Shown in pieces: positions 5,115-46,440 of a DNA stretch of 64,000 bases. The notes under the pieces were generated by a model. The model had not been told where the DNA came from. It saw nothing but the letters and a program-made list of their open reading frames with translations, and searched no databases. The stretch lies in the sequence record MH992122.1; one strand, 5' to 3'. Origin of the DNA: Escherichia phage OLB35. Position 1 is the first letter of the stretch. Each line of letters opens with the position of its first letter. The translations under genes were made by a program, and so were the position numbers.

Positions 5115-5312
5115 TTAGCAAGAATAACTAGATGATACCCAGCCTTGAACAGTAATACTATTATTTGATAACGAGATTGCGTCCTGGAGATTCAGACCTG
5201 CATTATCTTCAATCCACAATGTAACTTCTTCACGCTCTTCGGTTGCAATCTGGAACAGGTTTTCTAGAGCAGCTACTGCCGTACGTACAGCACAATCTAA
5301 TTCACGAGACAT
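5115..5312 (-). CDS. small protein, paralog family member P3 (C-terminal GWVSSSYSC)
   Basis: 65 aa; conserved C-terminal tail shared with the ORFs at 5322-5595 and 5605-5910. Confidence 0.5.
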   Translation of the reverse strand: MSRELDCAVRTAVAALENLFQIATEEREEVTLWIEDNAGLNLQDAISLSNNSITVQGWVSSSYSC

Positions 5313-7924: not shown

Positions 7925-8152
7925 TTATTTTTTAATCAAATTGACATAAAACTTGGCGTCTTCCGGGTGCATGCCTTCGCAGTATTCTTCAACCATGAAC
8001 TTCTTAACAGCTTCATAAGGACCACTCAGATTAAGCTCAGTTGTCCAAAACTTGGAATCTTGGGCTGAATCGATACGAACTTCAGGGTGTCGGTTGCGAA
8101 TAACTTCTTCGGTGTATTCATAATCAACGACATCAATACTAACTTTAGCCAT
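7925..8152 (-). CDS. hypothetical protein
   Basis: 75 aa; preceded by module M copy 1 (promoter plus conserved leader with GAGGAG). Confidence 0.45.
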   Translation of the reverse strand: MAKVSIDVVDYEYTEEVIRNRHPEVRIDSAQDSKFWTTELNLSGPYEAVKKFMVEEYCEGMHPEDAKFYVNLIKK

Positions 8153-8161
8153 TTTGTTTCT

Positions 8162-8635
8162 CCTCTGTAGTTGATAAGTCTTAACTATAGTATCACCATC
8201 ATTGGTGTTTGTACATCATTATTTTTAATTTTTCCAACTTAACAACCTTCAGCCAAGATACAACAGAGTTTTTATCTGAGGATTCAAATTCAGGCATTGG
8301 ACTTTCACCGCGAATAACTTCTTCGGTGTATTCATAATCAACGACATCAATACTAACTTTAGCCATTTTGTTTCTCCTCTGTAGTTGATAAGTCCTATAG
8401 TATCACCATCATTGGTGTTTGTACATCATTTATTTTTAATTTTTCCAACTTAACAACTTGTAGTGTCCTTCATTCATACGTGGTTTATCCCAAGAAATAC
8501 TAATATATGATTCGCCATCAATAGCTTTTTCTTCACCACCACCACTGATAGTCCTCTGTAGTTGATAAGTCCTATAGTATCACCATCATTGGTGTTTGTC
8601 AACTATTATTTTTAATTTTTCCAACTTAAAACTTG
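8162..8635. repeat. three tandem copies of a roughly 90-bp promoter/leader module (M) separated by partial gene duplicates
   Basis: module CCTCTGTAGTTGATAAGTC...TATAGTATCACCATCATTGGTGTTTG...TTTTTAATTTTTCCAACTTA at 8162-8255, 8376-8456, 8549-8635; 8300-8375 duplicates the 5' end of the 7925-8152 gene; 8457-8530 duplicates the 3' end of the 8626-8916 gene. Confidence 0.8.
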
Positions 8636-8916
8636 TAGTGTCCTTCATTCATACGTGGTTTATCCCAAGAAATACTAATATATGATTCGCCATCAATAGA
8701 AGTCGCCGGGTTTTTCTCTACCGTAAGACCTTCACTTTCCAGCCATTCAATAGTATTTGCGCATAAATCTGAAGAACACCTCATCGGAAACTGGCAAGAT
8801 TTTTCACCTTTAGATGCAGCGTTATACATCTTTTCTAAAATACGCTTTTGCACGTTTTTAAAAATGGTTTCAGCAGATTCTTCAGATTTTTTATTCAGTT
8901 CAGTATAAAGACTCAT
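8626..8916 (-). CDS. hypothetical protein
   Basis: about 96 aa from ATG at 8916 (MSLYTELNKK) with SD GAGGAG. Confidence 0.45.
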   Translation of the reverse strand: MSLYTELNKKSEESAETIFKNVQKRILEKMYNAASKGEKSCQFPMRCSSDLCANTIEWLESEGLTVEKNPATSIDGESYISISWDKPRMNEGHYKF

Positions 8917-9042
8917 AATATTCTCCTCATTAATAGGGCTCATAATATCTCAATCATTAGCTCATTTACGTATTTATAGTAACAGCATTCTCTGAGAGAT
9001 TCAAACTAAAAAGCCCCAACCTTTTGGCTAGGGTACAGAATG

Positions 9043-9507
9043 TTATTTGATTTGTTTAGCAGACCAAATGCGGTCTTTAATAAGTTTTTGGATATCTTCA
9101 ACATACTCAAGGCTATGAGCGTGAGGATTATCTTTGAAGCTATGTGCTCGTGCCAGTTTCTGGCCTTCAGTTTTGATTACCAAAAGTTCTTTAAGAATTG
9201 CTTCATACTTAGAAATAATTCCTTTGGCGATATTTTTTTCTTGAGCTGCTTTAGGGCCCGCTTTTGGTGCTGGTGCTTTACCTGTAGCTTTCTGGAACAA
9301 TTCACCTGATGCAGCTAGGCTTTTAAAAACTCGGCTAACAGTATTAGCATTAGTAAAACCTTCGGCTTTAAAATCTCTAATAAAACGGAAACGTTCTTCA
9401 TCAGAGGCGTCTTTGTAAGAATATTTACCTGCTTGAATTGCTGCAATCGCAGCGGCTTTTACATCTGAACTAGATTGTTCAGTCAAAAATTCTGCATATG
9501 ATTTCAT
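9043..9507 (-). CDS. internal-protein-like protein with CTS-like leader
   Basis: starts MKSYAEFLTE (compare T4 IP leader MKTYQEFIAE, L-x-E cleavage site); 154 aa, Lys/Ala-rich. Confidence 0.5.
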   Translation of the reverse strand: MKSYAEFLTEQSSSDVKAAAIAAIQAGKYSYKDASDEERFRFIRDFKAEGFTNANTVSRVFKSLAASGELFQKATGKAPAPKAGPKAAQEKNIAKGIISKYEAILKELLVIKTEGQKLARAHSFKDNPHAHSLEYVEDIQKLIKDRIWSAKQIK

Positions 9508-43165: not shown

Positions 43166-44734
43166 ATGACTACTATCAAAACTAAAGCTCAGCTCGTAGA
43201 CAAATGGAAAGAACTGCTGGAAGGTGAAGGCCTGCCGGAAATCGCTAATAGCAAGCAGGCTATTATCGCTAAAATCTTCGAAAACCAGGAAAAAGATTTC
43301 GAAGTATCCCCTGAATATAAAGACGAGAAAATCGCTCAGGCATTTGGTTCTTTCTTGACCGAAGCTGAAATTGGTGGTGACCATGGTTATAATGCTCAGA
43401 ACATCGCAGCAGGTCAAACCTCTGGTGCAGTAACCCAAATTGGGCCGGCAGTTATGGGTATGGTTCGTCGTGCTATTCCTAATCTGATCGCTTTTGATAT
43501 TTGTGGTGTTCAGCCTATGAACAGCCCGACCGGTCAGGTATTTGCTCTCCGTGCAGTATATGGTAAAGACCCTATCGCTGCTGGCGCTAAAGAAGCTTTC
43601 CATCCGATGTATGCCCCAGACGCGATGTTCTCTGGTCAGGGTGCTGCTAAGAAATTCCCAGCTCTGGCTGCTGACACTACTACTGTTGTAGGTGATATCT
43701 ATACTCACTTCTTCCAAGAAACTGGTACTGTATATCTGCAAGCTTCTGCTGTCGTAACACTTGATTCTGGTGCAACTGATGCAGCTAAATTAGATGCAGA
43801 AGTTAAGAAACAAATGGAAGCTGGTGCACTGGTAGAAATCGCTGAAGGTATGGCTACTTCTATCGCTGAACTCCAGGAAGGTTTCAACGGTTCTACCGAT
43901 AACCCATGGAATGAAATGGGCTTCCGTATCGATAAACAAGTTATCGAAGCTAAATCTCGCCAGCTGAAAGCTGCTTACTCTATCGAATTAGCACAAGACC
44001 TCCGTGCAGTACACGGTATGGATGCTGATGCTGAACTGAGCGGTATTCTGGCTACAGAAATTATGCTAGAAATCAACCGTGAAGTTGTTGATTGGATTAA
44101 CTACTCAGCACAGGTCGGTAAATCTGGTATGACCCTGACTCCTGGTTCTAAAGCTGGTGTATTTGACTTCCAGGACCCGATTGATATCCGTGGTGCTCGT
44201 TGGGCCGGTGAAAGCTTTAAATCTCTGTTGTTCCAGATTGATAAAGAAGCAGTTGAAATTGCTCGTCAAACCGGTCGTGGTGAAGGTAACTTCATTATCG
44301 CTTCCCGTAACGTAGTTAACGTACTGGCTTCAGTTGATACTGGTATTTCTTACGCTGCACAGGGTCTGGCTTCTGGTTTTAATACCGACACTACTAAGTC
44401 TGTATTTGCCGGTGTACTTGGTGGTAAATACCGCGTATACATCGACCAGTATGCTAAACAGGATTACTTCACCGTTGGTTACAAAGGCGCTAACGAAATG
44501 GATGCAGGTATCTACTATGCTCCTTACGTTGCACTTACCCCACTGCGTGGTTCCGATCCTAAGAACTTCCAGCCGGTAATGGGCTTTAAAACTCGTTACG
44601 GTATCGGTGTTAACCCGTTTGCTGAAAGTTCCCTGCAGGCTCCAGGTGCTCGCATCCAGTCCGGTATGCCGTCTATCCTGAACAGCCTTGGTAAGAACGC
44701 TTACTTCCGCCGTGTATATGTAAAAGGCATCTAA
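43166..44734 (+). CDS. 23: gp23 major capsid protein
   Basis: 522 aa; ...LLEGEGLPEIANSKQAIIAKIFENQEKDF... near identical to remembered T4 gp23. Confidence 0.95.
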   Translation: MTTIKTKAQLVDKWKELLEGEGLPEIANSKQAIIAKIFENQEKDFEVSPEYKDEKIAQAFGSFLTEAEIGGDHGYNAQNIAAGQTSGAVTQIGPAVMGMVRRAIPNLIAFDICGVQPMNSPTGQVFALRAVYGKDPIAAGAKEAFHPMYAPDAMFSGQGAAKKFPALAADTTTVVGDIYTHFFQETGTVYLQASAVVTLDSGATDAAKLDAEVKKQMEAGALVEIAEGMATSIAELQEGFNGSTDNPWNEMGFRIDKQVIEAKSRQLKAAYSIELAQDLRAVHGMDADAELSGILATEIMLEINREVVDWINYSAQVGKSGMTLTPGSKAGVFDFQDPIDIRGARWAGESFKSLLFQIDKEAVEIARQTGRGEGNFIIASRNVVNVLASVDTGISYAAQGLASGFNTDTTKSVFAGVLGGKYRVYIDQYAKQDYFTVGYKGANEMDAGIYYAPYVALTPLRGSDPKNFQPVMGFKTRYGIGVNPFAESSLQAPGARIQSGMPSILNSLGKNAYFRRVYVKGI

Positions 44735-44758
44735 TCTTAATTGATTAAATCTTATTTT

Positions 44759-44788
44759 GGGAGACTTCGGTCTCCCATTTTTGGTTTT
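44759..44788 (+). terminator. rho-independent terminator after gene 23
   Basis: GGGAGAC-TTCG-GTCTCCC followed by ATTTTTGGTTTT; identical stem-loop to the one at 25409. Confidence 0.6.
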
Positions 44789-45056
44789 ATTTCTGTGCAA
44801 TTTCGATGTAAGTTTTCAAAATATTTTGCCAATTAGGCATACCTTCTTGGACATATGCTGGAGAACCGTCTTTGTTTTTGAATGATGCAAGTTTATCAGT
44901 GGCCCAATAGCCTTTAGCTCGAGCTTCAGAATCAACTTTCATCCATACTTTGTTGAAGGCATTACCATTAACTTTTGCACCATATTTTTCTACTAACTTA
45001 ACTGCTTCAGCTTCCAGAACTTTTAAAGTATCTCGTAAGAAACGTGCTTTAGTCAT
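44787..45056 (-). CDS. hypothetical protein on an early-promoter cassette, antisense to the late cluster
   Basis: 89 aa; preceded by the module M leader GACTTATCAACTACAGAGGAG and a promoter. Confidence 0.5.
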   Translation of the reverse strand: MTKARFLRDTLKVLEAEAVKLVEKYGAKVNGNAFNKVWMKVDSEARAKGYWATDKLASFKNKDGSPAYVQEGMPNWQNILKTYIEIAQK

Positions 45057-45086
45057 TTTGTTTACTCCTCTGTAGTTGATAAGTCT

Positions 45087-45116
45087 ATAGTATCACATAC
45101 CAAATACGTTGTAAAC
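45087..45116 (-). promoter_or_regulatory. early promoter plus conserved leader (module M copy)
   Basis: minus strand GTTTAC (45111-45116), 18-nt spacer, TACTAT (45087-45092); the leader matches the modules at 8162-8635. Confidence 0.5.
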
Positions 45117-45122
45117 AATCTT

Positions 45123-45130
45123 TATAAATA
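45123..45130 (+). promoter_or_regulatory. late promoter TATAAATA (gene 24)
   Basis: exact TATAAATA 27 nt upstream of the gp24 ATG. Confidence 0.55.
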
Positions 45131-45156
45131 ATCTATATCACATAAGGAAAAATGCA

Positions 45157-46440
45157 ATGAGTAAAATCCAAAAATTATTGCGTGAATCTACAACGTCTAC
45201 TAGCAACTCAATTGGTCGCCCAAATCTCGTTGCTTTGACTCGCGCTACGACTAAATTAATATATTCTGACATTGTAGCAACACAAAGAACTAATCAACCT
45301 GTTGCTGCTTTTTATGGTATTAAATATCTTAACCCAGACAACGAATTAACGTTTAAAACTGGTGCTACTTATGCAGGTGAAGCTGGATATGTAGACCGAG
45401 AAAAAATTACCGAGCTCACAGAAGAATCAAAAGCCACACTAAATAAAGGTGATTTTTTCAAATATAATAATATCGTTTATAAAGTGTTAGAAGATACACC
45501 ATTTGCAGATATTCAGGAAAGTGATCTAGAATTAGCTCTTCAGATTGCGGTCGTTCATTTAAAGGTACGGCTATTTTCAGATGCAGCGGTAACAAGCAAA
45601 TTTGAAAGCTCTGGTAGCGAAATTTCTGATGCAAGATTCCAGATTAATAAATGGCAAACTTCAGTCAAATCTCGTAAACTTAAAACTGGCCTCACGGTTG
45701 AATTAGCGCAAGATTTAGAAGCGAATGGATTTGATGCCCCTAACTTCTTAGAAGATTTGCTTGCTACTGAAATGGCTGATGAAATTAATAAAGATATTCT
45801 TCAGTCTTTAATTACTGTATCGAAACGTTATAAAGTTACTGGAATTACTGACACCGGATTTATTGACTTGAGCTATGCTTCCGCTCCAGAAGCAGGTCGT
45901 TCGTTATATCGAATGGTGTGTGAAATGGTATCACACATTCAAAAAGAGTCAACTTATACTGCAACGTTTTGCGTAGCTTCAGCTCGTGCAGCTGCTATTC
46001 TTGCTGCTTCAGGTTGGTTAAAACATAAACCAGAAGATGATAAGTATCTTTCACAAAATGCTTATGGATTCTTGGCAAATGGATTACCTCTTTACTGCGA
46101 TACTAACAGTCCATTAGATTATGTGATCGTTGGCGTAGTAGAAAATATCGGCGAAAAAGAGATTGTAGGGTCCATCTTTTATGCTCCATACACTGAAGGA
46201 ATGGATTTAGACGACCCGGAACATGTCGGTGCATTTAAAGTTGTAGTTGATCCGGAAAGCTTACAACCGTCTATAGGTTTATTGGTTAGATATGCTTTAT
46301 CAGCAAATCCTTACACAGTAGCAAAAGATGAAAAAGAAGCGAGAGTAATTGATGGCGGGGACATGGATAAAATGGCAGGACGTTCAGACTTGTCTGTTTT
46401 ACTCGGTGTTAAATTGCCTAAAATTATTATAGATGAATAA
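45157..46440 (+). CDS. 24: gp24 head vertex protein
   Basis: 427 aa, same length as T4 gp24. Confidence 0.9.
   Translation: MSKIQKLLRESTTSTSNSIGRPNLVALTRATTKLIYSDIVATQRTNQPVAAFYGIKYLNPDNELTFKTGATYAGEAGYVDREKITELTEESKATLNKGDFFKYNNIVYKVLEDTPFADIQESDLELALQIAVVHLKVRLFSDAAVTSKFESSGSEISDARFQINKWQTSVKSRKLKTGLTVELAQDLEANGFDAPNFLEDLLATEMADEINKDILQSLITVSKRYKVTGITDTGFIDLSYASAPEAGRSLYRMVCEMVSHIQKESTYTATFCVASARAAAILAASGWLKHKPEDDKYLSQNAYGFLANGLPLYCDTNSPLDYVIVGVVENIGEKEIVGSIFYAPYTEGMDLDDPEHVGAFKVVVDPESLQPSIGLLVRYALSANPYTVAKDEKEARVIDGGDMDKMAGRSDLSVLLGVKLPKIIIDE

Follow-up and report, generated by a model that had tools for sequence, protein, structure and literature searches.

Within the late capsid operon of this phage, between capsid genes 23 and 24, lies what is probably an early-gene islet that is conserved and yet exchangeable; it is built around a minus-strand ORF of 89 codons. 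The original prediction had placed such an ORF in this gap, and it is indeed present in the window (the whole stretch of 64,000 nt that was analysed), where it is situated between the terminator of gene 23 and the late promoter of gene 24. The locus comprises the following elements:

44734, plus strand: end of gene 23 (major capsid protein)
44758-44787, plus strand: intrinsic terminator of gene 23, with a hairpin at 44758-44777 (8-bp stem, cUUCGg loop) followed by TTTTTGGTTT, a T-run
44787-45056, minus strand: 89-aa ORF with an ATG start
45057-45080, minus strand: short 5' leader, counted from the presumed transcription start, with the Shine-Dalgarno sequence GAGGAG at 45070-45065
45087-45116, minus strand: T4-type early (sigma-70) promoter
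45123-45130, plus strand: late (gp55) promoter box TATAAATA of gene 24, back to back with the early -35 hexamer
45157, plus strand: start of gene 24 (vertex protein)

Read along the minus strand, the sequence upstream of the ORF runs tatttataaagatt-GTTTAC-aacgtatttggtatgtga-TACTAT-agacttatcaactacagaGGAGtaaacaaa-ATG, with GAGGAG located 8 nt ahead of the ATG. The window around the ORF is 99-100% identical to Mosigvirus (RB69-like) coliphages, the nearest matches being Escherichia phages CCU7 and FP43 (99.8% over 44700-45170), and on this comparison we assign the source phage to Mosigvirus. Because longer spurious antisense ORFs occur within genes 22 and 23, the 89-codon ORF is unremarkable by length, and sigma-70-like hexamer pairs occur locally at chance density (2 found, 2.9 expected). 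What argues for the reality of both promoter and ORF is their positional conservation across phage genera together with the coding-type divergence of the ORF.

The ORF call draws on the program-made ORF list, a match to phrog_6003 over residues 1-89 (E 2.1e-45), the annotation of the identical locus in PhAPEC2 as 'similar to RB69ORF188c', its pattern of divergence and a structural model. It is the same gene at the same locus as RB69ORF188c/RB69ORF189c (NP_861878, NP_861879), with 97% DNA identity to RB69. Unlike the RB69 reference, in which the gene is split into two pieces, the window carries the intact 89-aa form, as do most isolates. Using tblastn, we retrieved 239 phage records, about 120 of them at 80% identity or above and 119 below 60%; database searches added intermediate homologs (61-71% identity) and a second subfamily (30-37%); identities overall fall into two ranges, 61-99% and 30-38%. 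Comparison of the window with the forms of 70% and 61% identity (type-A pairs) gave pN values of 0.21-0.24 against pS values of 0.70-0.83, the latter saturated. The homologs keep their length (87-93 aa) and their charge (pI of about 9.6, net charge about +5), the window's own protein being basic, with a pI of 9.6 and a mass of about 10.1 kDa. Among 14 aligned sequences, 12 positions are invariant and cluster in the N30-G31-N32-A33-x-N35 loop.

AlphaFold2 (AF2), run on the 14-sequence alignment, returned a confident model (pLDDT 91.3, pTM 0.75) composed of a helix (residues 3-25), a second helix (31-48), a β hairpin (52-60/66-70) and a C-terminal helix (76-88). A BFVD homolog with 31% identity has the same fold (TM 0.84). 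The original prediction had made the ORF hinge on its conservation as coding sequence in relatives, and had proposed protein homology and structure prediction as checks; the former revealed a family, phrog_6003, and the latter the model just described. Since pN lies far below a saturated pS, length and charge are retained and the AF2 model is confident, sequence divergence and modeling together indicate that the ORF is coding and a genuine gene. The predicted α-α-β-β-α fold appears to be new.

Searches for function returned little. Pfam gave only a sub-threshold hit of the 89-aa protein to DUF4859 (17.9 bits against a gathering cut-off of 22.6), which we rejected as chance, with only 2 of the 14 family members matching; the same search found no GIY-YIG domain. 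PADLOC gave no match, the PDB profile search nothing below an E-value of 0.026, and Foldseek no match of the AF2 model in the PDB; known defence and anti-defence proteins, searched as PADLOC models and solved anti-defence structures, were likewise without a match. Of the clusters matched in an exhaustive HMM search over 1.84 billion representatives, only about seven were genuine. A pair of giant Big_2/LRR repeat proteins was discarded, as their scores arose from summed weak repeats, and a match to one 160-aa chimera was rejected as a misassembly artefact. These searches point to a small family that is apparently confined to phages. In JGI, the homolog P0006 from the metagenomic phage L007 is named 'NADPH-dependent curcumin reductase CurA', evidently a mis-annotation. 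The homologs are already annotated, as hypothetical proteins, in more than 100 genomes; as an ORFan module with an early promoter, the element is of a known kind. The protein may act as a host-takeover or counter-defence accessory factor that binds a host macromolecule, and a small, confidently folded basic family without structural relatives is a reasonable candidate for host-takeover and counter-defence screens.

The promoter predicted ahead of the ORF was confirmed in the sequence. It consists of GTTTAC (45116-45111), an 18-nt spacer and TACTAT (45092-45087), and a consensus scan reads it as TTTACA-17-TACTAT with a TG upstream of the -10 box. A GTTTAC-like -35 element, a TAnnnT -10 element, a spacing of 17-18 nt and an upstream TG are thus all present, and the site is conserved in position in RB69, L009 (a Mosigvirus-like contig), L007, WG01, VR20 and T4; in an alignment of seven phages, the early promoter keeps its place upstream of the same gene. 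GTTTAC is the -35 consensus of T4 early promoters, for which an A-rich region at -40 to -44 has also been described (PMC1524935). The early promoters of RB69 (Nolan et al. 2006, PMC1524935) share the GTTTAC -35 element, the TAnnnT -10 element with upstream TG and the A/T-rich upstream region; that study predicts 57 early promoters in RB69, 13 of them before novel ORFs. The promoter of the 89-aa ORF differs from these in that its upstream A/T tract is itself the late promoter of gene 24. Neither the late box TATAAATA nor the MotA/middle box TGCTT was found on the minus strand upstream of the ORF, and a late or a middle promoter for it was rejected on this basis.

The gap between the early -35 hexamer and the late box, given as 7 nt in the original prediction, measured 6 nt (45116 against 45123-45130). 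Viewed from the minus strand, the late box covers about -43 to -50 relative to the early promoter, which is the A/T-rich zone of UP elements, and may therefore double as the A/T-rich upstream element of the early promoter and so serve both promoters. This back-to-back junction, composed of TATTTATAAA, 3-4 nt and GTTTACA, is kept in all seven aligned phages. The site had also been proposed as a point of interference between early and late transcription; this does not hold for the transcripts, since the two promoters diverge and their products cannot collide. The polymerase footprints of the two promoters must nevertheless overlap, although the holoenzymes and the timing differ, and any competition between early and late promoter would concern overlapping polymerase binding. 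The sole convergent pair at the locus is the ORF transcript and gene 23, with the hairpin separating them.

Folding of that hairpin gave -16.8 kcal/mol on the plus strand and -13.5 kcal/mol on the minus strand, and on each strand none of 200 shuffles folded as well. Its sequence, GGGAGACC-GAAG-TCTCCC, is identical in four phages, with compensatory stem changes in VR20 and T4, and the gene 23 terminator is present in all six genomes compared by Nolan et al. 2006 (PMC1524935). A terminator scan called a single terminator, on the plus strand only. On the minus strand, the hairpin lies 9 nt past the ORF stop codon and is followed by AAAAUAAG instead of a U-run, so that of the two components of an intrinsic terminator the ORF's own transcript has the hairpin but not the U-run. 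Termination of the ORF transcript at this hairpin is doubtful on this sequence, and because the U-run is missing, read-through antisense to gene 23 is possible.

This arrangement invites a reading in which the RNA, or the promoter itself, is what matters and the peptide is secondary: read-through would produce a classical 'anti-late' RNA, antisense to the 3' end of gene 23, or the early promoter would block the late promoter of gene 24. The missing U-run and the overlapping footprints fit such a role, as does the retention of the arrangement regardless of cargo, including segD in T4. On the other hand, the ORF is under purifying selection and its fold is conserved, phages T2 and RB14 manage without the unit, and the divergence of the promoters precludes a collision between them. 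We consider an RNA-level role unlikely.

The leader had been predicted to recur in a group of modules at 8162-8635, and this was confirmed. The window contains exactly four copies of the 20-mer GACTTATCAACTACAGAGGA, at 8161, 8375, 8552 and 45066, always on the minus strand, whereas 100 shuffles contained it 0 times. The three additional copies form the following feature:

8161-8620, minus strand: three further copies of the -10 box and leader, in a tandemly duplicated ORFan cluster beside an internal-protein-like gene

Similarity between the 45-kb site and the modules at 8.1-8.6 kb extends over about 50 nt: it begins at the -10 box, reaches the first codons and includes two indels and one mismatch; the shared stretch runs from GTGATACTATAG through the Shine-Dalgarno sequence to ATG-nCT-AAA-G. 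The leader does not, as the original prediction implied, mark one particular cassette. A 55-nt leader query matched 1163 places in 492 phage records, and the unit GTTTAC...TG-TACTATAGACYTATCAACTACAG(A)GGAG...AAAATG could be aligned before denV of T4 (beside ipII), regB of Mosigvirus and alc of Dhakavirus. By these matches it is best described as a generic T-even early promoter-leader. An exact scan of IMG/VR viral contigs with the 20-mer gave 0 matches. The leader RNA has a minimum free energy of only -1.4 kcal/mol, and 190 of 200 shuffles folded equally well or better; a structured leader or riboregulator was ruled out, the leader being less structured than shuffled sequence, and Rfam returned nothing close to any gathering score over 44600-45300. 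The leader contains GGAG followed by an A-rich tract. RegB cleaves GGAG-type sites of this sort in early mRNAs (PMC3014915), and by analogy the leader GGAG is a candidate RegB cleavage site.

We compared the intergenic region between genes 23 and 24 across T-even phages, a check that had been suggested for this locus, and found the slot to be homologous and its cargo to vary. In Gaprivervirus VR20 (38% identity) and Dhakavirus WG01 (33%), the slot is filled by a member of the same protein family, likewise antisense. It is also found in this slot in L007, a 173-kb metagenomic phage (ENA ERZ27245996 k123_278436; 61%), and in L009 (70%). In four phages of the Dhakavirus/Gaprivervirus type (VR20, WG01, L007 and IME08), gene 24 is present as two tandem paralogs of 426-427 aa each; Mosigvirus and T4 have one.

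These comparisons bear on the term 'inserted', which the original prediction had used in the sense of a recent or phage-specific event, and which does not fit. A recent, lineage-specific insertion of a mobile early-promoter module between genes 23 and 24 would account for the leader shared with the 8.1-8.6 kb modules, for the empty slot of RB14 and T2, and for the different gene in T4, but the same family, orientation and TATAAATA/GTTTAC junction recur in three genera, Mosigvirus, Dhakavirus and Gaprivervirus, at 30-38% identity. The close form is moreover present in about 120 phage records, and the shell of the unit persists in T4. Synteny has already largely refuted this reading, and we hold it to be improbable.

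That T4 holds a different gene at this position proved correct. The T4 slot contains segD, a gene for a 223-aa GIY-YIG endonuclease, antisense between genes 23 and 24. The two loci agree in slot, orientation, TATAAATA/-35 junction and UUCG terminator hairpin; they differ in that the T4 product is an endonuclease unrelated to the 89-aa protein, and certain phages carry both genes in tandem. Upstream of segD, we found TTTACA-17-TATTAT with a TG, which scored 10 of 12 and was the best site in the region. On the strength of its positional homology to the early promoters of the 89-aa genes, it is listed as:

NC_000866, about 107,253-107,281 (5254-5282 of the T4 segment L004), minus strand: promoter-like site of segD

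A 2010 review reported that a segD-specific promoter was not found and expected vanishingly low transcript levels (PMC2988022). According to the supplements of a time-resolved study from 2022, segD belongs to the early class by its RNA and to the middle class by its protein, and intensities for SegD are listed there (PMC9697503). The promoter homology fits the early RNA class and contrasts with the review. A testable explanation is that expression of segD in T4 stems from an inherited early promoter homologous to that of the displaced gene. Extending the T4 class to the homologous slot, we infer that the promoter position of the 89-aa ORF would also be active early in infection. A literature search for a Mosigvirus transcriptome found none.

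The slot is modular and exchangeable. Phages RB14 and T2 have a gap of only 82-83 nt between genes 23 and 24, in which the UUCG hairpin is followed directly by TATAAATA, with no early promoter. Among 502 Tequatrovirus-type records, 56 continue the T4 match past the end of gene 23. One case of exchange is phage LF82-1. From gene 24 through promoter and leader as far as GAGGAG, it matches the window at 97-100% identity. Beyond this point it is 88-98% identical to Dhakavirus IME08, with a type-B ORF and a segD-like gene that begins 3 nt past the ORF stop and shares 57% identity with T4 SegD, and in gene 23 it returns to 100% identity with the window. This natural recombinant is a clean example of modular exchange within a conserved capsid module. 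Its left crossover lies at the Shine-Dalgarno sequence and its right crossover near the gene 23 stop and terminator (L012, 1930-3033). The LF82-1-type nuclease was found at 95% identity or above in about 31 records. L007 has Dhakavirus-like gene 23/24 flanks around a type-A ORF (Mosigvirus-type allele). What drives such transfers may be either the nuclease or common recombination in the conserved flanks. A family member also occurs in Acinetobacter phage ABPH49 (Vequintavirinae; L013, 2501-2767) among unrelated hypothetical genes, which points to horizontal transfer of the gene across phage families.

The description of the gene as a cassette-borne accessory gene therefore stands in part: the module is exchangeable, the gene accessory and the T4 slot different; its presence is not recent, and its leader is generic. 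In a Klebsiella T4-like phage, segD sits at the same 23/24 position and is absent from a close relative (PMC8778798).

The tandem arrangement raises another reading, in which ORF and segD-type nuclease are linked in function, the ORF carrying or protecting the target site of the nuclease or acting as its partner. In LF82-1, IME08 and others, the nuclease gene follows 3-4 nt past the ORF stop as a two-gene unit, and both genes have moved jointly into a Mosigvirus backbone. Against such a tie, the window, WG01 and VR20 carry the ORF without a nuclease gene, the space between ORF and hairpin in the window containing none, and T4 carries the nuclease gene without the ORF. T4 SegD, moreover, reportedly does not home its own gene, to go by the title of a 2018 report by Sokolov. 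We regard a functional tie as quite improbable.

The 89-aa gene is dispensable. In the RB69 reference (NC_004928; L006, 5292-5532), a +1 and a -1 indel, together with a cluster of substitutions lying between the two, have broken it into ORF189c (30 aa) and ORF188c (42 aa), and truncated copies are found in phage mogra and a few others. Because the gene is broken in RB69 and mogra, it is non-essential, and since several isolates have lost it, any benefit is conditional. The split gene of RB69 is either a real pseudogene of the laboratory strain or the product of old sequencing errors. Very improbable, and the least probable of the readings weighed here, is a role of the protein in capsid biology, for instance as a helper of assembly or as an internal protein packaged in the head, a role that would account for the location of the gene within the head-gene cluster. 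The site between genes 23 and 24, the basic character of the protein and a weak PHROG match to 'internal virion protein' (E 0.09) point that way, but the gene lies on the opposite strand behind an early-type promoter with no late box, lacks the MKxYxEF-type N-terminus found in the 9043-9507 gene, is disrupted in phages that are viable, is missing from T2, RB14 and T4, and has its ABPH49 homolog outside any capsid context.

We thus return to the reading favored at the outset, an early-gene islet within the late capsid operon, which would operate as follows. Right after infection, host sigma-70 polymerase would start at the minus-strand early promoter and produce a short, unstructured mRNA with a strong Shine-Dalgarno sequence for the 89-aa basic protein. 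This transcript would then meet the hairpin that serves gene 23 on the plus strand as a terminator. Later, gp55-polymerase would start from TATAAATA and read gene 24 the other way; early and late promoter would thus make up one compact divergent node used at different times. The flanks, with the promoter and leader on one side and the hairpin and the end of gene 23 on the other, would act as joints for homologous recombination, at which the cargo may be swapped between phage lineages, deleted, or replaced or accompanied by a segD-type nuclease gene.

A more far-reaching version of this proposal is possible, although on balance we doubt it. It takes the islet to be an ancient divergent early/late node whose early arm is a landing pad on which the cargo can change. 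The two deeply diverged alleles of the basic, new-fold protein (about 30% identical within capsid flanks of about 84% identity) would reflect an arms race against the defences of the host, and the segD-type nuclease would have arrived behind this gene as a promoter-less passenger that displaced it in T4. If true, it would explain why segD is the sole homing-endonuclease gene of T4 oriented against its neighbours, as well as the origin of its promoter.

Among described systems, a further close comparison is with the PeSL (promoter-early stem-loop) cassettes known from phages of the RB49/phi1 type (Arbiol et al. 2010, PMC2839356). As in PeSL, an early promoter module is repeated before ORFans, and the repeats serve as joints for insertion, deletion and replacement. 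The counterparts here are the crossover that LF82-1 shows within the leader and, at 8.1-8.6 kb, the tandem duplications bounded by promoters, so that a repeated motif flanking ORFans is present in four copies together with signs of recombination. In contrast, the PeSL composite, in which a strong early promoter stands next to a stem-loop terminator, is absent: no stem-loop is fused upstream of the promoter of the 89-aa ORF, where the late box of gene 24 stands instead, and the lone hairpin lies at the 3' end of the ORF and belongs to gene 23. The unit also differs in its location, which is the conserved capsid module and not a hyperplastic region, and in that its conserved part runs on through the leader and Shine-Dalgarno sequence. 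PeSL-like elements on T4 early promoters are reported at T-even internal-protein loci in the same paper, which cites Repoila et al. 1994 (PMC2839356); the generic leader corresponds to these, its T4 copy at denV being a neighbour of ipII.

In the ORFan cluster itself (7925-8943, minus strand), the three promoter-leader copies mark the boundaries of partial duplications in tandem. One repeat of 88 nt, with 99% identity, comprises the leader and the first 19 codons (MAKVSIDVVDYEYTEEVIR) and yields a 75-aa ORF (7925-8152) and a truncated 55-aa duplicate (8199-8366), while a 91-nt repeat copies the 3' end of a 105-aa ORF (8626-8943). Judged by their boundaries, these duplications look like the outcome of unequal recombination between promoter modules. 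Adjoining the three leader copies is a 154-aa ORF (9043-9507, minus strand) with the N-terminus MKSYAEFLTEQ, which we take to resemble the capsid-targeting N-terminus of T-even internal proteins, and the modules at 8.1-8.6 kb appear to sit in an internal-protein locus.
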